A stretch of DNA of 64,000 nt from an uncultured archaeon (GTDB taxonomy: Archaea > Thermoplasmatota > Thermoplasmata > Thermoplasmatales > Thermoplasmataceae), in NCBI GenBank assembly GCA_000965745.1, contig CP009479.1:1760001-1824000 (forward strand). The letters are read 5' to 3'. Within the stretch, counting starts at the first letter, position 1, and the number at the start of each line of letters is the position of its first letter. The notes under the pieces are model-generated. The model saw only the letters and a program-made list of their open reading frames with translations. It had not been told where the DNA came from and did no database searches. The translations under genes and the position numbers were made by a program. Below, piece after piece: positions 3,777-48,348 of this stretch.

Positions 3777-4856
3777 TTGTCCATCGAAGTGGAAAAGACT
3801 TCGTTAAAGTCAAGTGCAGGGAACTCATCCGATCTCACGAATGGATATGACATAAGTGTGGTAATAATATCCCATTCAAGAAAAGAATTCATTCTAGATG
3901 CTTTCAGATCTGTCATTGAACAGACTTTTCCGCGAGATAGATTCGAGGTAGTTGTTGTCAAGAATTACGAAGATGAAGAGATCGACGGCGAGCTGCAGGC
4001 TAATCAAGCTAAACTTGTGTTGGAACTCAAAGAGAGCTTTGGGGCCAAAATAGCTTCAGGAATCGAAAACTCGACTGGGCGTACAATATGCTTTCTCGAT
4101 GACGATGACATCTGGAGCAAAGAAAAACTTGAGACCGTTTACACTTTATTTCAGAGCCCAGATGTCGTCTACTATCATAACAGCCAGTTATTCGTCGATT
4201 CAGAATTAAAACCCCTGGAGAAAGATCTGCTTCCTTCGGAACTTGGAAAAATGAATGAGATTGGGCGCCTCGAGATTTCAAAAGACTCAGGGAAACGGAA
4301 ACTTGGCCTCATCTATTCGGCATCCTCAGATTTCAATCTAAGCTCCATATCCGTCAGTAGGGAGTTCATCCAGAAATTCAACAGTGTGATTGGGGCATTC
4401 GACTCGACTCTGGATTCCCTGATATTCTATCTTGCTTTTGGTTCTGGCAGCAAACTGATCTTGGATTCAAGACAGCTGACAAGCTACAGAAAGCATCAAA
4501 ATAACATATCAAAAATTGCGCTATCCGGGACAGACAAAGGTTCAGACATAAGAAAGAATTTTATTTTGAGACAGGCAAGAGGTTTTGCAGAAATCTGTGA
4601 TTATTTCAAGAGAAATGGAGACTCAAAAACTTATAGGACAGTTTGCCCTGTAGCAATAGGTCTCGAGATGATCGCCAACCTCCAGGACGGTCATCTGGGC
4701 AGATCAAGGCTTCTTGCAAAGCTTCTGAAATTCATAGCTACTGCAGGCATAGACCTCATGATGGCAAGGAAAGATTTTGCGTTCTACGGTCTTCTGCAGA
4801 TAATATCGCCCAGAAAAGCCAAATCAGTTTATGTTGAACGCAGCGGGAACCTGTAA
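3777..4856 (+). CDS. GT2 glycosyltransferase
   Basis: ISVVIISHSR, EVVVVKN, CFLDDDD. Confidence 0.9.
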   Translation: MSIEVEKTSLKSSAGNSSDLTNGYDISVVIISHSRKEFILDAFRSVIEQTFPRDRFEVVVVKNYEDEEIDGELQANQAKLVLELKESFGAKIASGIENSTGRTICFLDDDDIWSKEKLETVYTLFQSPDVVYYHNSQLFVDSELKPLEKDLLPSELGKMNEIGRLEISKDSGKRKLGLIYSASSDFNLSSISVSREFIQKFNSVIGAFDSTLDSLIFYLAFGSGSKLILDSRQLTSYRKHQNNISKIALSGTDKGSDIRKNFILRQARGFAEICDYFKRNGDSKTYRTVCPVAIGLEMIANLQDGHLGRSRLLAKLLKFIATAGIDLMMARKDFAFYGLLQIISPRKAKSVYVERSGNL

Positions 4857-4868
4857 TTTTTATTCGGG

Positions 4869-4888
4869 TTGCAACCGCAAGGTTGCAA
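4869..4888. terminator. Hairpin between convergent GT genes
   Basis: TTGCAACC-GCAA-GGTTGCAA: perfect 8-bp stem with GNRA loop. Confidence 0.45.
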
Positions 4889-4907
4889 ACACCGTGAAGT
4901 AGAAACA

Positions 4908-6002
4908 TCAATGGCTGGTCGGCATACCTTCATCATTGCCCGCACCCACCGAGAGGGCTATCTGGGCTCTTCTATCCATATATGATTTCCTGGCCTTCTC
5001 AGGGTTAATGGCAGCAAGGAACGAGTAATAGACCACATCCTTCCTGTGTATTATCTCTGAGATTCTGGAGTGTGCGAGATAGCTGAACACGTTAATAAGG
5101 TTACTGAGTCTCCCGGAACGTCTGTTTATGATGTTATGGAAAATGAGCGAAATGAAGTAATAATGGGCTGTTGACCGGATGAGATCTTTTGCATCCGTAT
5201 CCTTGGCAAGATCGTAAAACGCCTTTCTGTTCTCATACATCATTTCCATTGTATTCCCTATACGCTCGACCCATCCTTCTGAGTTCACTGCAGAATCAAG
5301 GGACGTATTCTGTTGATGGAATCTGAAGGAGCTTGATTTGACGGCGTCCACCATTATAACTCCCTTCATTCTTACCGCAAGGATGTACATTATCGTGTCC
5401 ATACCAAGCTTGAGTGAGGATATGATTTCGGAATTCTCGCTCACAAGGCGACGCCGGACAGCTATGGCTGACAGGTTGTACGTCGCTGTATCGAATTCCC
5501 TGTACGGGTTGTGCCTCTCCCCCCCTGAATAACTGTATCTAATGGTTCCAATTCTTTCGACTGACCTTATGAATTGTTCAATAACCGGCCTTCCCGCAAT
5601 CTCATTACCGTCCCCATCGATGAAATTGGTGAGGTTATGATAATAGATCAGGTCCCCGTCACTCATGAATGCTTCTTGAACCCTCTGTAGCTTGTCACTC
5701 CTGAAAATATCATCATCCTCAAGGAAAGCTATCACATTTCCACTGGCAATGGAGAGACCCTCCATTATTTTTTTACCCTGGCTTTCTTCCGCGCTTTTCA
5801 GCCACTTGACCATGTTCGCGTTGAGGTATTCTTCCAAGTTAGCGTTCATGTAGTTGGATACAAGGATGATCTCGTAGTGCTCTCTGCTAAGAGTCTGGTT
5901 GAGAGTGCTCTCTATGGCCTCCATGAGGAACGGGCGCTCTTTGTATGCGGTGATTATGACAGAGATCTCAACGCTCATGTCTGCTAAAGTAATCTTATTC
6001 AT
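4908..6002 (-). CDS. GT2 glycosyltransferase
   Basis: ISVIITAYKER, AFLEDDD; paralogue of 3777; true start may be MSVEIS. Confidence 0.9.
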   Translation of the reverse strand: MNKITLADMSVEISVIITAYKERPFLMEAIESTLNQTLSREHYEIILVSNYMNANLEEYLNANMVKWLKSAEESQGKKIMEGLSIASGNVIAFLEDDDIFRSDKLQRVQEAFMSDGDLIYYHNLTNFIDGDGNEIAGRPVIEQFIRSVERIGTIRYSYSGGERHNPYREFDTATYNLSAIAVRRRLVSENSEIISSLKLGMDTIMYILAVRMKGVIMVDAVKSSSFRFHQQNTSLDSAVNSEGWVERIGNTMEMMYENRKAFYDLAKDTDAKDLIRSTAHYYFISLIFHNIINRRSGRLSNLINVFSYLAHSRISEIIHRKDVVYYSFLAAINPEKARKSYMDRRAQIALSVGAGNDEGMPTSH

Positions 6003-38738: not shown

Positions 38739-38997
38739 ATGCCTGATCTCCACGTGGTTGCCAGGATCACAGGTACTTGTTGAAAACGGGCCGTTACAGA
38801 AGACAAAGCTCTCGCTGCCTGCCGATATGGCTTACGACAAAATGGTTGTTTACATGAAATAGATGATGGAGAACAACCTTATACAGGAGAATGCCGCTCA
38901 CATCGACCTGAATGAAGATGGAGTAAGAACCTGTGAAGAGGTAGTTTCATGGATCGCGCAGTACGTGGGCAGACTGTGCTTTCCAAGGGAAAGATGA
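38739..38997 (+). pseudogene. Winged-helix (HTH_45/ArnR-like) regulator pseudogene
   Basis: MPDLHVVARI, then frameshift to ENGPLQKTKL...MAYDKMVVYMK*MMENNLI...; in-frame TAG at 38860-38862. Confidence 0.6.
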
Positions 38998-39086
38998 TGG
39001 CCATCTATAGAAAGAAAGCAAAACTTCACCCGGTCATTCATAAAAATTTGTTTATTAACTGTATAGGGATCATATCCTGTTGCTTC

Positions 39087-39485
39087 ATGAGTGCTGATGA
39101 TGGGGTCAAACTACTAATGCAGAGGTCAGAGAGATTTCTGGAGAATGTGAAACATAACTTTGAGATAGGATTTCTGGATATTGCGGCTTTCAGCCTCGAA
39201 CAATCGATCGAATTATTTCTCAAGTCAAAGGTACTTGAGAAGGCCGGAGATTTTCCTCATACGCAAAATATCAGAACACTAATGCAGACACTCTCTGAGC
39301 AATCAAGTCAGCGGTGCAGTGAGATCGTTAAATCCTATCTTGACAAGCATGGAATAATACTCGGGGCGATTCAGGATGCATATATTACATCAAGGTATTT
39401 TGCGATCAATATTGAAAAAAATGATCTGGACAAGATGATCCAGGTGGTTCAGGAGATAATCCATGACCTTAGACATGTTTGCTAG
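39087..39485 (+). CDS. HEPN domain protein
   Basis: AAFSLEQSIELFLK, AYITSRY; paired with MNT. Confidence 0.85.
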   Translation: MSADDGVKLLMQRSERFLENVKHNFEIGFLDIAAFSLEQSIELFLKSKVLEKAGDFPHTQNIRTLMQTLSEQSSQRCSEIVKSYLDKHGIILGAIQDAYITSRYFAINIEKNDLDKMIQVVQEIIHDLRHVC

Positions 39486-39783
39486 ATACTCGAAGCGACG
39501 CAAGGAAGCATTTAGTCGTCTCAATGAAAACCTCCAGAAAGTAAAATCTATTGTGGTAATGGAAGATCCATCAGCTAAAATCTATCTTTTCGGCTCCGTT
39601 GCCAGGGGAAACTACAATATGGCAAGCGATATAGATATACTCATAGTCTCCAGGGATTATGTCAAAGCAATACGCAAAGCCCTGATAGAAGCAGGTTTTG
39701 GGGAGCCGTACGAATTTCACATCAGGTCACCAAGAGATGCTCAAACATACTTTCGTCATGTAAAAGATATTAGGAAAATTTAG
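39463..39783 (+). CDS. Minimal nucleotidyltransferase (MNT)
   Basis: YLFGSVARG...SDIDIL. Confidence 0.9.
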   Translation: MTLDMFARYSKRRKEAFSRLNENLQKVKSIVVMEDPSAKIYLFGSVARGNYNMASDIDILIVSRDYVKAIRKALIEAGFGEPYEFHIRSPRDAQTYFRHVKDIRKI

Positions 39784-41611: not shown

Positions 41612-41920
41612 TCATCCTTTCCAGATGCCTATCCCCACTCCCACAACGAATAAGACGACCAGCAGGGAAAGGGAGCCTGCGTTCCCTATTGGAATTATGG
41701 ACGCTATTGAATGCAGGTTAGTAACGATATATGACACAGCTTTTGACAGGATGTTTGAAATTGATATCTTAGGGACAAAGGACAGGCCAACGTATCCCGA
41801 AAGAATGAAAGCAACTATGAGCAGCACGAAAGAGACTATTCCTTTCTTGACGGCGAGACCAAAGAGGAGCCCGTCAACGAAAGCGAGTATCAATAAAACT
41901 ATTCCACTTATATCCGGCAT
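41612..41920 (-). CDS. Small membrane protein (3 TM)
   Basis: Hydrophobic, Gly-rich helices; clean ATG start. Confidence 0.7.
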   Translation of the reverse strand: MPDISGIVLLILAFVDGLLFGLAVKKGIVSFVLLIVAFILSGYVGLSFVPKISISNILSKAVSYIVTNLHSIASIIPIGNAGSLSLLVVLFVVGVGIGIWKG

Positions 41921-42106
41921 TTTTTTAACCTGATTACAATTATATTAATTCTCCTTAAATTCTTTATGGTACGTTTCCGGTTATACATCCTGCAACTCAG
42001 TACGGAATCCAGGTAAAACGGAGAATGAATGTTAAAAACAGCGTGAAGAATATTAAAATATATAAAAAATAAATAAAAATAAATTACTTATTTTCATTTT
42101 TTAAAT

Positions 42107-42691
42107 TTAGCTAGAGATGTATGTCATGGATACTAGTATCTCACCATTCAGCGCAGCACCATCGTAGGGTGGCGTGAAGAATCCAATGTAAATCGTTGTG
42201 CTCCCGTCGACAGCGACTGAGTATGAGTCAGCCGATGTCAGAGAGAACGCCGTTACACCGGGGTTCACGACTGTGGGTATCTCGCCAGGGAGTCCCTGGT
42301 AATTGAAGTCGCTGAAGCTCAGTGGGGCCAGTGAGAAATACATGTATGATCCTGTAACGAACGGTGAACTCACGGTTGAGTTAAAGTAAAACATACCAGA
42401 CCCAAGAGTGGGTGCGAAGTTGATCTGCATCACGTTTATGATGAAGGTCGACTGGTTGCTTACTGTGCCAAACTGGAGATCGCCCATTGCGTTATGCGTT
42501 CCCGTGTATGGGTTCCATGAGATAGATCCGTCTGCTGTCTGGAAGTTGGATCCCGGTGCAAGCCAGAATGCGGCATTGTTATGGGTTCCATTTACTCCTA
42601 CCTGGCCTGTTATCATCACATCTGCTACGGCTACCGCTGGAAGGATGGCCGATACTGCTGCAATTAACAACAGGGTTAATCTTCTGTTCAT
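42107..42691 (-). CDS. Secreted beta-rich fibre-subunit-like protein, paralogue 3
   Basis: Class I signal peptide ending AVAVA|DVMITG; GGAGTG RBS. Confidence 0.8.
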   Translation of the reverse strand: MNRRLTLLLIAAVSAILPAVAVADVMITGQVGVNGTHNNAAFWLAPGSNFQTADGSISWNPYTGTHNAMGDLQFGTVSNQSTFIINVMQINFAPTLGSGMFYFNSTVSSPFVTGSYMYFSLAPLSFSDFNYQGLPGEIPTVVNPGVTAFSLTSADSYSVAVDGSTTIYIGFFTPPYDGAALNGEILVSMTYISS

Positions 42692-42712
42692 TTTATATCA
42701 CTCCTTGTTCCC

Positions 42713-43330
42713 TCATGATAGTGCCACGAATTGGCCCGTGAGCAGTGCGCTAGATCCTGCATAGTATCCAGGTGGCAGAACAAATCCAATGTAGAACGTC
42801 TGTGCCGGGCTGAAATTGGTTATCAGCAGGTGCGGGTTCTCACTGAGATCAACAGCTACTACGGTCGCAAGTGAAGATCCATCAACTGATATCGGTGTAC
42901 CGACATAGTGTGTTATGGCTGTCCCTATAAGAACTGCAAAGGTAATCGTGGAAGTCGAGATGACCATTTCAGTTCCGACCGGGAAGTTTGATGAAGACAC
43001 GTTAAGGTACAAACCCATGAACGACGATGGAGCTAAAGCATTACTAATAGTAATGTTCAGGTCAATCACGTTTATCATGGAGGTCTGCACGTAGTAACTT
43101 CCCTGGAGGTCCAGTGTTCCCATTTCTCCGCCAAGCACATCAGGCATCCATCCTATGGAGTTTGTTGCGTTGGCTGCGGCGTAGTTCGGTCCAGGCTGGA
43201 ATTCAAACGCAGTGTGATGATGTTTGTTCTCTAGTGAAATCTGTCCTGTTATCATTACGTCAGCCACAGCTACCGCTGGAAGCAGTGTTGCAATGGCTGC
43301 AACCAATAACAGTGTCAATTTTCTGTTCAT
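42713..43330 (-). CDS. Secreted beta-rich fibre-subunit-like protein, paralogue 2
   Basis: Same AVAVA|DVMITG N-terminus; AGGTGA RBS. Confidence 0.8.
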   Translation of the reverse strand: MNRKLTLLLVAAIATLLPAVAVADVMITGQISLENKHHHTAFEFQPGPNYAAANATNSIGWMPDVLGGEMGTLDLQGSYYVQTSMINVIDLNITISNALAPSSFMGLYLNVSSSNFPVGTEMVISTSTITFAVLIGTAITHYVGTPISVDGSSLATVVAVDLSENPHLLITNFSPAQTFYIGFVLPPGYYAGSSALLTGQFVALS

Positions 43331-43378
43331 TTTTTTTCACCTAACCAAAAATAATGGTGTTTTTTAGGACACCACTAT

Positions 43379-43954
43379 TTAATGCGCTATGAAAGTGCCA
43401 GTTATGGTACCAGTTGCTCCAGCATATGATCCAGGGGGCAGGTAGAAGCTCATGTAGTATGTTGTTGTTCCACCGGGGAATGGCCCGTTGAACTGGAAGC
43501 TTGCGCTGTTGATCGACTGTCCGCCGAGAAGACCTGGGAGTGAGTGCACATCAACCGTGTTGTTTGTAACCCAAACCATTGCTCCAGCGGGGAAGTTTCC
43601 AGTGAAGTTCACATACAGTGTTCCGGTAACTCCTGCGCCTATTGTCACGTTCAGGTCAAGAACATTTGCGAGTGCTGTTGTCTGGTTGTTTATGCCTTCA
43701 AGGTCGAATGATGCCATTGGTGCGAGTTGTCCGGGTTCTACTGATGCGGGCTGCATGGGGTTCCACGCAATGGCTCCGGCTGCGTAGGCTGCGGGGTAGT
43801 TAGGTCCTGGTTGGATCTCAAACACGGGTGTGTTCTGAGTACCAACAATGCTTACATTTCCTGTTATCATCACATCGGCTACAGCAACTGCGGGAAGAAT
43901 TGCTGCAACTGTTGCGAGTAACAACAGGGTCATCTTTCTATTCGTACTTTTCAC
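43379..43954 (-). CDS. Secreted beta-rich fibre-subunit-like protein, paralogue 1
   Basis: Same AVAVA|DVMITG N-terminus; GTG start. Confidence 0.8.
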   Translation of the reverse strand: MKSTNRKMTLLLLATVAAILPAVAVADVMITGNVSIVGTQNTPVFEIQPGPNYPAAYAAGAIAWNPMQPASVEPGQLAPMASFDLEGINNQTTALANVLDLNVTIGAGVTGTLYVNFTGNFPAGAMVWVTNNTVDVHSLPGLLGGQSINSASFQFNGPFPGGTTTYYMSFYLPPGSYAGATGTITGTFIAH

Positions 43955-44049
43955 CTCTCTATTTTTGGCTTAATGCCTGATTACATTATGAGCGGTGAAA
44001 TATATTTAATGGGTGGAATAAAAAATACATATAAGATCTTCTAATAGTT

Positions 44050-44072
44050 TGTAGGAATAAGAAATTCCTACA
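44050..44072. promoter_or_regulatory. Inverted repeat upstream of the fibre-gene array (candidate operator)
   Basis: TGTAGGAAT-AAGAA-ATTCCTACA, perfect 9-bp arms. Confidence 0.45.
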
Positions 44073-44147
44073 TCTTATATACCTGTAAAGTTGAAATGCC
44101 GGCCCGGGCTCCCGCTGGATTGAAAATAAATGGAAAAAGCAACCAGT

Positions 44148-44942
44148 TCACTGAAAAGCTGTTGTGAAGAGATTGAAAAACAGAATGAATGCGGTAATCC
44201 CATAGGAGGCGAATGACGTGTATGCAGACGCTGAAAATGCAGGCTTCCTTTTCATGTAAGTTGCTACGGTGTAGACGGCCATGCACACTATTACTACGGC
44301 AGAATATACAATCGCCAGGTGTATGAGGCCGTTTATGCCGGTGATCCATGACATGGAGGGCGCATAGAAGGCAGCAAACGTTAAGGCTCCTGCTGAAACG
44401 AGCATTATTGCCATCAATCTCTTGGTTACGCTTATCCTGCTCACGACTGTCGTCAGTACTGCTATGCCGAGGACTGCAGCCAGAATAACGTATATGGAAT
44501 AGGTTACTGTCGACGGAAGCGAAGGCAGCAGCAGGTTTAGTTTCTTGACCGGGGAAAGCAGGAGAGATACGAGTATCCACAAATCGAGTGTGAGGAGTAT
44601 GAGCTGAGTGTCCGCGACAATTCCTTTACCCCCCGTATTGTGGACGAAATCTGAGAAAGGGGCTGTTGCTATGCTTGGTTCTGCATCTGGGACAGAATTC
44701 TCTGAATTCTCAGGCAGAGTACTTTCCATTAACCCATCCAGGGTGGACCGTTCCCCCTCTTGATGCTCAATCCTGTCTTTTTCCAGCCCATCACCATGGC
44801 CACCGGGAGGGGCAAGCAGGAATTCAAGTTTTTCCTCTTCAGGGCTGAGCTTTCTGAATGTTATGAAAAAATATATGGCAACTACTCCACCTATTACAAA
44901 CTGTGGAAGAAAACTGATCAATGCAGCAAGATCGAATTGCAT
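44148..44942 (-). CDS. Hypothetical membrane protein (1 TM, acidic loop, ~5 TM)
   Basis: Hydropathy pattern; lies between the peptidase and the fibre genes. Confidence 0.75.
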   Translation of the reverse strand: MQFDLAALISFLPQFVIGGVVAIYFFITFRKLSPEEEKLEFLLAPPGGHGDGLEKDRIEHQEGERSTLDGLMESTLPENSENSVPDAEPSIATAPFSDFVHNTGGKGIVADTQLILLTLDLWILVSLLLSPVKKLNLLLPSLPSTVTYSIYVILAAVLGIAVLTTVVSRISVTKRLMAIMLVSAGALTFAAFYAPSMSWITGINGLIHLAIVYSAVVIVCMAVYTVATYMKRKPAFSASAYTSFASYGITAFILFFNLFTTAFQ

Positions 44943-45013
44943 AGCGAACGTTGATCATATCCCCAAGCCGGCATATAAACTATTCCAAAAAATTGAAAAA
45001 TATTTTGAAGCGG

Positions 45014-45808
45014 CTACTTCTTTTCCTTTTTGAACAACCTGTCATAAGGGAATACAGAAGCCGCGATGACAATCACAATAAGTATGCCCAGGTACAGGTA
45101 TGCGTTGTTTGGAACCTCGTTGTACTGGGTCCAGCTGCCACTGAATCTCAGTATATTAAGCTTTATCAGTCCGACCCATGGTATCTGACCGTAGGAGGTT
45201 CCCACGACCTTATCGGGCTGTACCGGGTTGAAGCCGAATACGTTCTGGTCTGAAGCACTGTATGCATTCTGGCTGGAATTGTAGAGGGGGCTGTGTGCAA
45301 GATTGTAATCGCCTACGGTTACGTAGCCGTCCTTGCCGACAAAGTGGTTCAGGTAGACGATGAGATTTCTGTGGGTAAAGCCAACATTATCGATGATCAC
45401 AGCGTTTGAAGTAATTTTGATCCAGCTTTGGCCATGATCACCTGCGACAATAGGAGTTGAACCGTTCCAGGACAGGTAAAACATGGCCCTGTGTATGATT
45501 ATCCTGCCATTCGGGTCATGGTAGAGTATAACGTTTCCAAACTCGCCATAGGTGCTGTAGCCTGAATCTCTTCCCTGAACATAAGTTACCACATCTCCGG
45601 TAGAGTTGTGGATATTCTTGGCGAAAACAATGTCCCCGGTGTTTATGGTCCCATAGGTCCAGTTCTGTGAATGTTCCATGCTCTCTGACTCCACAACATA
45701 CAGGGGGGGCCATACGTCAGAGTATGCAATGACAGAGGCAACGCTTGCCAGAACAACTACTGCAATTGCGATAGAGGCAATCTTTCTTGCTTTCACGGTA
45801 CATCGCAT
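45014..45808 (-). CDS. Signal peptidase I, S26B (Sec11/SipW type)
   Basis: VVESESMEH (Ser), GDIV, IIHR (His), TVGDYN, IPWVG; N- and C-terminal TM helices. Confidence 0.88.
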   Translation of the reverse strand: MRCTVKARKIASIAIAVVVLASVASVIAYSDVWPPLYVVESESMEHSQNWTYGTINTGDIVFAKNIHNSTGDVVTYVQGRDSGYSTYGEFGNVILYHDPNGRIIIHRAMFYLSWNGSTPIVAGDHGQSWIKITSNAVIIDNVGFTHRNLIVYLNHFVGKDGYVTVGDYNLAHSPLYNSSQNAYSASDQNVFGFNPVQPDKVVGTSYGQIPWVGLIKLNILRFSGSWTQYNEVPNNAYLYLGILIVIVIAASVFPYDRLFKKEKK

Positions 45809-45932: not shown

Positions 45933-46556
45933 TTATTCAACACTGAGTGTGGACTGGCGGTGTTTGCTGTAGTTATACTCGACATTTTCAAAGGCATTGT
46001 TTATTTTGCGAGCAGTAGTGAACAGGTCCACAAGTATCAGAAGCAGCACTGCCGAGAATATTATGGTTATACCGAAAACAATACCATCCAGCTGGAATAT
46101 GATGCTGTCGGTGAATGCAAACTGGGTAGCAGTAACCAGGACGTATTCAGTTATGGCTATCATTACTCCGTAGATTATCATGAGTTTCCTGATCATTGAT
46201 GAGTCATGCTTGACCCTCTCGAGGTCTCTGCTTGGCTGCAATGCGTTTTTGAGGGACGACTCGAGCTTTTCCATATCCTTCATGGACATCATTGGCATAT
46301 CGTCCGGTTTGGTCTCTTCACCCATTTCCTCCGCAATCTCCCTTTCACTGAAGAACAACTGCGTATTGAGAGAGCTGTTCCTCAGGAACATTGAAAGCAT
46401 GTTCTTGGTGAATACCATGTTTGAGAGTTTTTCGATAGTCTTGACCTTGCTTTCAAGTCGTGAAATGTAGTCCTTGAATCCTTTTCCGGATATGTTGTAT
46501 ATCAAGAATGATACGACAAGTATCAGGGTAGGGATTATGTAAAGATACAGCAACAT
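45933..46556 (-). CDS. Hypothetical membrane protein (3 TM with coiled loop)
   Basis: Hydropathy pattern; GGGGCTG RBS-like site. Confidence 0.75.
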   Translation of the reverse strand: MLLYLYIIPTLILVVSFLIYNISGKGFKDYISRLESKVKTIEKLSNMVFTKNMLSMFLRNSSLNTQLFFSEREIAEEMGEETKPDDMPMMSMKDMEKLESSLKNALQPSRDLERVKHDSSMIRKLMIIYGVMIAITEYVLVTATQFAFTDSIIFQLDGIVFGITIIFSAVLLLILVDLFTTARKINNAFENVEYNYSKHRQSTLSVE

Positions 46557-46607
46557 TTTATTCAGCCCCCCTTCCAGGATATTTCATCTGATCATTATCC
46601 ATGAATA

Positions 46608-47036
46608 TCATGTACCTGGCCTCCTGATCTGGCTCTTGATGGCCCATCTCCTTTCCATTGCCTGCTTCATCTTCTCCTTGTCGCCACGGAACTCAGGAAC
46701 ATCGGGGGAAAGGGGGGCATTTTTCGCGTTTCCTCTCTTTACCTCCGATCTTATTTTCTCAATGGTTTTCTGCCTCTCTAGAATTTCCTCGAACTCCTCT
46801 TCTTCCATGCTGTTCTTCTGGCCGGCAATGTCTTCAACTTTCTTCTCGAGATAATTGACCGTTCTCTTAAGCATCTGAAATTCAAAATTGTCGTACAGCG
46901 CCCTTCTGATAACGCTCAGGGTGCTCTCATTCGGTCTCCTGAGAAGTTCTATCAGGACAAGGTCCTCCCTGAACAGCTCAACGGTCAGTGACTTCAGTTC
47001 CTGATTTTTGTTCTCCGAAACGCTTTCATTTGCCAA
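46608..47036 (-). CDS. Hypothetical protein, RHH-like N-terminus plus coiled coil (ParR-like candidate)
   Basis: SLTVEL / EDLVLIELL / STLSVIRRAL strand-helix-helix pattern; directly downstream of the actin gene. Confidence 0.55.
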   Translation of the reverse strand: MANESVSENKNQELKSLTVELFREDLVLIELLRRPNESTLSVIRRALYDNFEFQMLKRTVNYLEKKVEDIAGQKNSMEEEEFEEILERQKTIEKIRSEVKRGNAKNAPLSPDVPEFRGDKEKMKQAMERRWAIKSQIRRPGT

Positions 47037-47101
47037 TTATCATCATCCACTCATAATATTAGATGGCGAAAAGAAAATAAAAAAGAAGGATTTTCCTCGC
47101 C

Positions 47102-48091
47102 TTATTGTCCTATTTCCCTCTTTGCTGCATCCTTGTAGCCAAGGGCGTTTGCAAAGGGAAGATCCTCTTCGGGAATTTTAATAAGTGCACCCGGAGCCAG
47201 TGATTCGAGCTTTTCGCCAATAAGGGCCGCTCCCCCGCCAACCGGTATGAGTGCAGTGACACGGTCAAGCTCACTTCTCAGGTTCGCCCTCATGTTATCC
47301 ACGATCCTGTCTGCAAGTTCCTGAAGGAATGGTGCAGCGAATTCCGGGCCACCCACTTCTCTCTGCTTGAACATGACGCTTTCCGATATCGACTCGCGTG
47401 CAACATCAGTCGGGACAACAAACCCGGTTTCCCTGGCGATGGCCTTTGCAATTTCTGAAACTGAGTCTCCGACTCCGGTTGTTATGCTGAACGACATCTG
47501 GAGAACAGGCTCCATGGTAGAAAGGTTCAATGTAAGAACATCAGTTGTTCTGGATCCCACATCAATTACTGTTGCAAGGCCCTTCTGCTGTTTCATTAGA
47601 CCTTTCTCTATCATATAGAGTGCAGCTCCTACTCCCTGTGGCCTCATGACAAGCCTGTCTATGGAAAGCTGCCTGACTTCCCCGGACAGTGAAGTGATCT
47701 TGATGCTCCTGCCTTCGAGAGCCTTTCTGGATTCGGCCAGTTCCTTGTCAAAGGTTCCCAGGGGAGTCCCGCTTCCAAGAACCACCTGGGTGGGAGATCC
47801 ATCAGCTCCTGCACCGCTTGCCCAAAGGGCTGCCCCGATAAGGGGGAGTGAAGCATTGTCTGCGAGTCTTCCATCGCCCAGAGGCTCCCTTGCATTTGGC
47901 CCATTCGCATCTTCTCCAAATGCAAAATGGTCTGTGCCGTCATCTACACTTAATATGGGAATATTCCCACCAATCCCCCACGATGTTCCATCATGCTTTG
48001 CCCACCGGGAAGGGAAGCTTATTCTCTCATCATTTACACTGATTACTTTTGTATCTCCATAACCAAGGTCTATACCAACAACTACTGACAA
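47102..48091 (-). CDS. ParM/StbA-like actin homologue (Ta0583 type)
   Basis: GIDLGYGDTK, RPQGVGA, IDVGSRTTD, VGGGA, ANALGY; GGAGGTG RBS before TTG 48091. Confidence 0.92.
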   Translation of the reverse strand: MSVVVGIDLGYGDTKVISVNDERISFPSRWAKHDGTSWGIGGNIPILSVDDGTDHFAFGEDANGPNAREPLGDGRLADNASLPLIGAALWASGAGADGSPTQVVLGSGTPLGTFDKELAESRKALEGRSIKITSLSGEVRQLSIDRLVMRPQGVGAALYMIEKGLMKQQKGLATVIDVGSRTTDVLTLNLSTMEPVLQMSFSITTGVGDSVSEIAKAIARETGFVVPTDVARESISESVMFKQREVGGPEFAAPFLQELADRIVDNMRANLRSELDRVTALIPVGGGAALIGEKLESLAPGALIKIPEEDLPFANALGYKDAAKREIGQ

Positions 48092-48348
48092 CTCTTTACA
48101 CCTCCAACTGGAAATATCTTCCACAACTCTTCCATAACTAGTTGAGTCACTTATTGACTATCAGAGCCTTTTCGTATTAAAATCTTTACATCGACTGCAG
48201 GCGAAATTTTTGTCTAGACACGTTGAAAACTGCGGTTTCCCGTGAAATTTTTTTTCTTCATGAAGCCGTGTTTATCTGATTCCCACATTATTAGCCTTTC
48301 TATTTTGATATTTTTAATAGTTTTGAAGCACTACCACAGGGAGGATAA

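Follow-up and report, generated by a model that had tools for sequence, protein, structure and literature searches.

The window is a 64,000-nucleotide stretch of DNA from an uncultured archaeon of the family Thermoplasmataceae (GenBank assembly GCA_000965745.1, contig CP009479.1, positions 1,760,001 to 1,824,000 of the forward strand), and positions below are those of the window unless stated otherwise. We analyzed a cluster of six open reading frames (ORFs) within it, all on the minus strand and arranged as mem102, subC, subB, subA, mem264 and an S26-like peptidase gene, which encode, among others, three paralogous secreted proteins, a polytopic membrane protein and a signal peptidase that may together build a surface fibre. 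The features of the cluster, listed from its upstream end, are as follows.

45014..45808, minus strand: ORF of 264 amino acids (aa), a paralogue of the S26 (Sec11/SipW-type) signal peptidase
44148..44942, minus strand: mem264, ORF of 264 aa, polytopic membrane protein
43955..44147, minus strand: intergenic region between mem264 and subA, 193 nt, AT-rich with TATA-like stretches
43379..43954, minus strand: subA, ORF of 191 aa with a GTG start, predicted precursor of a secreted jelly-roll subunit
42713..43330, minus strand: subB, ORF of 205 aa, second subunit paralogue with leader and mature N-terminus as in subA
42107..42691, minus strand: subC, ORF of 194 aa, third subunit paralogue with leader and mature N-terminus as in subA
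42046..42106, minus strand: T-rich tract 3' of subC, oligo-T after the stop codon, read from the sequence
41612..41920, minus strand: mem102, ORF of 102 aa with several hydrophobic segments, downstream of subC

Three secreted paralogues with one leader and mature start

SubA, SubB and SubC are 37-41% identical in pairwise alignment, and a search of the organism's own genome, a single contig of 2.23 Mb, recovers their paralogy far above chance (E 1e-25 and 1.5e-19). All three proteins contain the block LPAVAVADVMITG without change, the leader of SubA reads MKSTNRKMTLLLLATVAAILPAVAVA with a predicted mature start at DVMITG, and in all three a Sec-type leader ending in LPAVAVA is followed directly by DVMITG. 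Spaced motifs farther along the chains are likewise invariant (PG.N[YF], I.W.P, T...NV and Y..F..PP). The ORFs, the alignment and the genome search agree with the original prediction, which had described three tandem secreted paralogues with this leader, mature start and set of motifs. The leader and its cleavage site, assigned by reading alignments and translations, have the textbook layout of a signal peptidase I substrate, with an n-region of MNRK, a 13-residue h-region, proline at -6 and alanine at -3 and -1, and the leader motif is confined to the three sub genes within the 2.23 Mb. Synonymous differences are present at 13 of 20 leader codons that specify the same residue in all three genes, and this divergence beneath an invariant leader points to selection on the protein, not to recent gene conversion.

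The prediction had also stated that the subunits lack a C-terminal membrane anchor, and none was found in the translations of the window's three subunits or in a hydrophobicity scan of homologues from related loci, where the single hydrophobic segment is N-terminal. The mature proteins contain 0-1 Lys/Arg, 4-7% charged residues and 43-48% Ser/Thr/Asn/Gly/Ala, with 3-5 N-x-S/T N-glycosylation sequons each, and the low charge together with the sequons fits exposed proteins of an acidophile. We also considered type IV pilins and archaellins, whose class III leaders are short, charged propeptides with Gly or Ala at their end, cut by a prepilin peptidase ahead of the hydrophobic helix. No such propeptide is present here, the small-residue site lies after the helix and not before it, and this layout, together with an all-beta core that retains no N-terminal helix in the mature part, argues against the assignment.

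Scans of Pfam and NCBIfam, covering nine neighbouring proteins and 50 distant family members, assigned no family to the subunits or to mem264. Relatives of the subunits nevertheless numbered 58 among 5.8 billion clustered proteins, and 98 cluster representatives among 1.84 billion matched the subunit profile (53 of the 98 with E up to 1e-10). All named sources are Thermoplasmata, namely many metagenome-assembled genomes (MAGs), Oxyplasma meridianum, Thermogymnomonas acidicola and Thermoplasma. A subunit match is present in 31 of 121 genomes sampled from the order, 12 of the 31 having the close DVMITG type, and SubA orthologues from ten loci are 64-75% identical. The leader is almost invariant even where members share about 30% overall identity, and distant members retain the plan LLP..V.A followed by a strand-like VVI (hhalign probability 99.9%).

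A tree of the mature parts resolves the three paralogues as orthogroups with support of 99% for A, 98-99% for B and 95-96% for C, together with a fourth clade of genes from Thermoplasma, Oxyplasma and Thermogymnomonas, and the gene order A-B-C is retained in two genera. Supported orthogroups in a fixed order indicate that the triplication is old and that the copies are specialized, which contradicts the earlier suggestion of interchangeable subunits.

Two further observations concern the family outside the window. One Thermoplasmata MAG, WH5.bin35 (locus L021, 4364-10791), holds five subunit copies in 6.5 kb, two of them near-identical at the start, in a lineage-specific expansion of a single-type clade. 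In several relatives the cluster is accompanied by a gene for another secreted protein, about 200-230 aa long (L010 9983-10606, L012 9906-10601, L014 10059-10673, L018 5441-6106 on the minus strand, L080 8514-9119 and L081 6008-6637), with a leader ending in G or A followed by D/E-[IV]-[LM]-[IV]. Its start is GDILVTG in L018, EVMVVS and DVMIIS in Thermoplasma and the looser GDISAQG or GDILGQG in L010, L012 and L014. Judged from sequence, this protein may be an additional subunit type, for which the window has no gene.

An AlphaFold2 model of SubA built from the family alignment (mean predicted local distance difference test, pLDDT, 81.9) has a nine-stranded jelly-roll core, mostly above 90, at residues 44-191. 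The 13 aa at 27-39, which comprise the invariant DVMITG and what follows it, are the most conserved part of the family and are modelled as unstructured, outside the core, at pLDDT below 50. Their unplaced state in the model is compatible with strand donation. The best Foldseek match of the model in the PDB is the Pyrobaculum bundling pilin AbpA (7ueg, E 2.2e-4), with a Sulfolobus thread subunit ranking thirteenth. Of the three comparisons that the original prediction had proposed, those with AbpA and the threads are borne out in this way, while TasA structures are absent from the top 50 structural matches. A VIA search of 48,161 representative chains returned the Pyrodictium cannula subunit 9h8b at Z 7.2 (root-mean-square deviation 2.8 over 108 residues), the cannula-like tube 9bac at Z 7.1, AbpA 7ueg at Z 6.9 and the thread 7pnb at Z 6.4, which places four archaeal donor-strand filaments within the top nine. 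Donor-strand complementation is the assembly mode of each of the four, which have been placed together in a TasA superfamily (10.1101/2024.12.30.630787).

Other comparisons were less informative. Profile searches of PDB sequences gave chance matches only, with no AbpA, CanX, 0406 subunit or TasA among them, and language-model feature similarity of the subunits to the DUF1102/TafA-like family was 0.92. In a mean-field coupling analysis of 141 family members (effective number of sequences 114), indel columns dominated and no strand ladder with the N-terminal extension appeared. A complex prediction for three mature SubA copies with the family alignment, run without controls, scored 0.00 and counts neither way.

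A duplicated signal peptidase and a constant membrane partner

Upstream of the subunit genes and on the same strand, as the original prediction had described, are the gene for mem264 and that for the S26-type peptidase. The peptidase reaches 20.8 bits against TIGR02228 (E 2.8e-4, residues 10-79), below the curated cut-off of 51.85, and has no match to PF00717 or PF10502. The whole Thermoplasmatales S26 clade is similarly divergent, and NCBI lists its members as 'S26 family signal peptidase'. The boxes SxSMxH, IHRA, GDxN and ADQN are kept, reading VVESESMEHS, IIHRA, GDYN and SDQN in the window copy (ADQN in most copies), and all of the 42 Thermoplasmatales copies in the alignment retain the serine box S-x-S-M. 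The enzyme accordingly carries a His general-base box, not Lys, plus Asp boxes; from what is known of archaeal Sec11, we take the HR, GDxN and ADQN boxes to be catalytic.

Whether this might be the sole housekeeping Sec11 had been raised at the outset, and a second, 53% identical S26 copy is in fact encoded 0.67 Mb away (genome positions 1,137,855-1,138,679), with no S24/S26 candidates in the genome beyond these two paralogues. Across the order, an S26 enzyme is present in 109 of 121 genomes, and 11 genomes encode two full copies. The 12 genomes that have close subunit matches include nine of these 11, and in eight of the nine one copy adjoins the subunit genes. This linkage of peptidase and subunits spans at least three genera and two gene orders, and it recurs within the Thermoplasmataceae. 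In the peptidase tree the linked copies form two clades of their own, one comprising this genus and a second genus and the other Thermoplasma, while unlinked copies group with single-copy enzymes of their own or related genera. This separation argues that the window peptidase is not the housekeeping enzyme. Within the 42-copy alignment the linked copies have GD[YF]N where their unlinked partners and most single-copy enzymes have GD[HN]N, although an aromatic residue also stands at this position in both copies of Oxyplasma and in a few single-copy enzymes. The aromatic residue, lying beside a conserved Asp, is a possible specificity determinant, and the locus-linked peptidase would be the enzyme that removes the conserved leader.

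The most constant partner of the subunits is mem264, which has one N-terminal helix, a variable linker and five further helices, with a conserved PSMxW loop and invariant residues P13, G19, W122, P140, R169, P195, M197 and W199. In all triad loci with a recovered upstream flank (L010-L018 and L020), mem264 is the gene immediately upstream of the subunits; it also adjoins them in L025 and is present in the Thermoplasma loci. An AlphaFold2 model from 11 orthologues has six helices at a pLDDT of 55, too poor for a fold search, and an Atlas search with mem264 yielded sub-threshold rows only. It may act as an anchor or assembly platform.

The same components recur in other arrangements. The order in Thermoplasma sp. 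(L081) is subunit, peptidase, second subunit type and mem264 homologue, the second type having a leader that ends in PAEG and a mature start of DVMIIS. In Thermoplasma acidophilum these genes extend over 6 kb, interrupted by additional ORFs, and all four are annotated as hypothetical (UniProt Q9HL53, Q9HL51, Q9HL48 and Q9HL47). Short ORFs at 4737-5084 and 7008-8030 of L080 (T. acidophilum 400000-410000) lie among these cluster genes, one with a transposase-like tail, and comparison with the compact L081 suggests that the T. acidophilum cluster was split by insertions. That the three components are kept together in differing orders across the Thermoplasmataceae argues for their functional coupling.

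A possible strand-donation fibre and its alternatives

We propose, with slightly more confidence than doubt, that the cluster encodes a donor-strand fibre of the surface or matrix, distinct from type IV filaments, in which the linked peptidase performs the cleavage, mem264 forms the base and SubA, SubB and SubC have distinct roles. The three subunits would be exported through the Sec pathway and cut after LPAVAVA by the S26 paralogue of the locus, freeing an extension of about 17 residues (DVMITGxVxIxGT) with alternating hydrophobics. This extension, which lies outside the jelly-roll core, would enter the next subunit as a donor strand, and since one donor strand is common to all three proteins they could join into a single polymer. 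The subunit types would be specialized, for example as major subunit, adaptor, and tip or terminator, and the six-helix mem264 would anchor or nucleate the fibre at the membrane. Both the donor-strand role of DVMITG and polymerization are plausible but unproven.

Several results weigh against this proposal. All fold matches have Z below 8, level with the Epf adhesin domain (Z 7.8) and capsid jelly rolls, and the carbohydrate-binding modules CBM27, CBM61 and CBM4 match at Z 6.3-6.9; with such middling scores and ties to sugar-binding modules, the fold alone is no sign of a filament. We regard it as a generic jelly roll, in which the enrichment of filament subunits among the matches to the model is suggestive, not decisive. 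Neither PF12389 (TasA) nor DUF1102 (PF06510) matches the subunits or anything else in the genome. Shallow alignments used for hhalign gave 11% against eight TasA-like sequences, confined to a C-terminal hairpin, and 0.15% and 1.7% against DUF1102; none of these is significant, although alignments of this depth may miss a distant relationship. Some distant members of the family are solitary genes with no peptidase or membrane partner. Four loci (L010, L011, L012 and L015) keep mem264 and A-B-C with another gene at the peptidase position, and in the two of those species sampled (G099 and G117) a single S26 gene was found, which suggests that a dedicated copy is helpful, not indispensable. Finally, the N-terminus may be invariant for another reason, as a site for recognition by the peptidase or for docking to mem264.

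This last point belongs to the strongest alternative, that the proteins are secreted or surface glycoproteins that do not polymerize, either sugar-binding or adhesive jelly rolls or a loose coat, with the N-terminus acting as a recognition peptide for the peptidase or a docking peptide for mem264. We consider it unlikely, yet it would account for carbohydrate-binding modules and the Epf domain matching the model as well as filament subunits do, for the lack of any profile link to known filament families and for single-copy relatives that have no partners. Its difficulty lies in the extension itself, which is conserved, strand-like in its alternation and unplaced in the model, as signal peptidase I, to our knowledge, usually imposes no constraint on six or more residues past the cut. 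Three orthogroups with one N-terminus and a dedicated peptidase also mirror the tafi and TasA loci, and four of the few solved archaeal donor-strand filaments would have to appear in the top nine of 48,161 chains for other reasons.

A more improbable alternative treats the N-terminus as an uncleaved signal anchor that tethers the jelly rolls to the membrane as a surface coat. The whole hydrophobic segment is near-invariant in the DVMITG subfamily, and LLP...A is kept in distant relatives, which is unusual for a discarded leader. Cleavage is favoured, however, by the leader layout, which is the classic one with its short h-region, Pro at -6 and Ala-x-Ala, and by a peptidase paralogue that travels with the subunit genes, and the leaders of SipW-dependent proteins in Bacillus are likewise conserved as a class (NCBIfam TIGR04088). 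A membrane-tethered coat would suit the relatives that live without a cell wall, among which Candidatus Scheffleriplasma has a single membrane (PMC8975820). Coincidental adjacency, in which the peptidase is an ordinary Sec11 for all secreted proteins and the paralogues are unrelated cargo, is disfavoured as highly improbable: the peptidase keeps all the general catalytic boxes and some species have no linked copy, but the separate genome copy is the one that groups with single-copy enzymes of related genera, and a second copy is largely limited to subunit-bearing genomes and adjoins the subunits in eight.

A stronger form of the fibre proposal, which we advance tentatively and with less than even confidence, is that Thermoplasmatales build a membrane-anchored donor-strand fibre from three specialized subunits unrelated by sequence to TasA, AbpA, CanX, thread or DUF1102 proteins, with the fibre's own duplicated Sec11, GD[YF]N being its candidate specificity determinant, and a new six-helix base. 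If true, it would add a new family to the surface filaments of archaea, and the linked peptidase would join TafD as the second archaeal signal peptidase to have been recruited by a single fibre. Only in recent years has strand donation (as in TasA, bundling pili, cannulae, threads and tafi) come to be seen as a widespread archaeal route to matrix and adhesive filaments, and the cluster would bring extreme acidophiles under the same principle. Many Thermoplasmatales have the membrane as their sole envelope and no cell wall, so a fibre would have to be held by the membrane alone. The profile-based surveys in the literature that we searched report no such fibres for Thermoplasmatales, our literature search found no link of Thermoplasma or Thermoplasmatales to them, and a search by T. 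acidophilum locus tags, which were guessed, found nothing. As T. acidophilum, a long-standing laboratory organism, carries the cluster, the proposal is directly testable.

The fibre may also bear on unidentified filaments between a related host and its Micrarchaeon. Filaments were seen by cryo-electron tomography between Candidatus Scheffleriplasma hospitalis and its Micrarchaeon (PMC8975820). The genome of this cultured relative (G051), which belongs to a different genus, has one S26 gene and one distant family member (C1:1629677-1630174), so the A-B-C cluster does not explain those filaments. We had also considered three consecutive down-regulated hypothetical genes of the same host (PMC8975820) as a counterpart of the cluster, a candidate rejected for the different genus and the single distant member.

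Gene neighbourhood and comparison with known fibre systems

The T-rich tract after subC is the likely end of the subunit transcript, as oligo-T tracts act as archaeal terminators. At the other end, the AT-rich region 43955..44147 may have a promoter or regulatory role. It includes an inverted repeat (44050-44072) whose 9-bp arms match perfectly around a 5-nt loop and which could be a terminator of the upstream genes or a regulator site. A promoter and terminator scan with bacterial-type models, applied to this archaeal host, found sites no commoner than in shuffled sequence. The gene mem102 lies beyond the oligo-T tract with a separate AT-rich upstream region and adjoins the cluster only in the closest relatives (L013, L016 and L020), and its membership of the system is uncertain.

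Directly upstream of the cluster (45933-48124, minus strand) are genes for an actin-like ATPase (PF21522 and PF17989, E 6e-42), a small coiled-coil protein of 142 aa and mem207, a membrane protein of 207 aa. Only in the closest genus (L013, L016 and L020) are these three genes found beside the cluster, and we count neither them nor mem102 as parts of the system. On the plus strand at 38949-39783, overlapping ORFs encode a HEPN-like protein (178 aa) and a nucleotidyltransferase-like protein (106 aa, with a GSxxxGxxxxxSDxD-type motif), which look like a HEPN/MNT toxin-antitoxin pair. The pair lies beyond the PolX gene, where L013 and L020 have a fourth, more distant subunit paralogue.

Among known fibres, the chaperone-usher and type V pili share with our proposal the principle of a donor strand supplied by an N-terminal extension with alternating hydrophobics, and the FimG-containing entries 6e14_G and 3jwn_G are among the weak Foldseek matches. 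In contrast to those systems, there is no chaperone, usher or outer membrane here, and the core is a jelly roll, not an incomplete Ig fold.

The TasA superfamily (tapA-sipW-tasA, AbpA 7ueg, CanX/CanA 9h8b, the 0406 threads 7pnb and AbpX) comes closer, as its members likewise combine a leader for Sec and signal peptidase I with a jelly-roll core and expose an N-terminal strand after cleavage (PMC9245690; PMC9674648; 10.1101/2024.12.30.630787). In TasA systems SipW is a dedicated S26B peptidase, the role that we propose for the linked paralogue, and archaeal AbpX/TasA-like genes often lie beside a signal peptidase I gene (10.1101/2024.12.30.630787). In contrast, the AbpA, cannula and thread loci have no dedicated peptidase, and no TapA- or AbpB-like gene was recognized here. 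The subunits have the leader and the jelly-roll core of the superfamily, whereas no sequence or profile homology to PF12389, AbpA, CanX or 0406 was found. The original prediction of a SipW/TasA-like system is supported by the linked peptidase, the jelly-roll model and the N-terminus outside the core, but finds no significant counterpart in the TasA and DUF1102 profile comparisons. Elsewhere in the phylum, two Thermoplasmatota MAGs (L085 878-1456 and L087 850-1404) have canonical TasA-family (PF12389) genes adjoining SipW-like peptidases with an SGSMEP box, so the classical TasA-SipW pairing exists in Thermoplasmatota; it was not found in the Thermoplasmataceae sampled.

A close parallel in layout is with the genes for haloarchaeal tat-fimbriae (tafi; TafA/C/E with the signal peptidase TafD) and the tafi-like DUF1102 clusters of Thermococcus, Pyrococcus and Archaeoglobus, which also combine a dedicated S26 peptidase with two to three secreted paralogues; these subunits measure 150-200 aa and carry Sec-type leaders, and the clusters encode additional partners that are membrane-bound or secreted (PMC11821415). 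Deletion of tafD in Haloarcula blocks TafA processing and fibre formation, and donor-strand exchange has been proposed (PMC11821415). The present locus has the same core, a dedicated S26 peptidase encoded with Sec-dependent subunit paralogues. Its subunits, however, lie outside DUF1102, its peptidase is of the two-helix Thermoplasmatales type while TafD has four helices and two domains, and its constant partner is an unrelated six-helix membrane protein, the tafi partner DUF5305 (TafG, PF17231) not being found in the genome. One identical N-terminus in all three subunits is a further difference from tafi. By analogy, then, the layout and the likely principle are those of the tafi and TasA systems, while the locus has a subunit family, peptidase lineage and membrane partner of its own.

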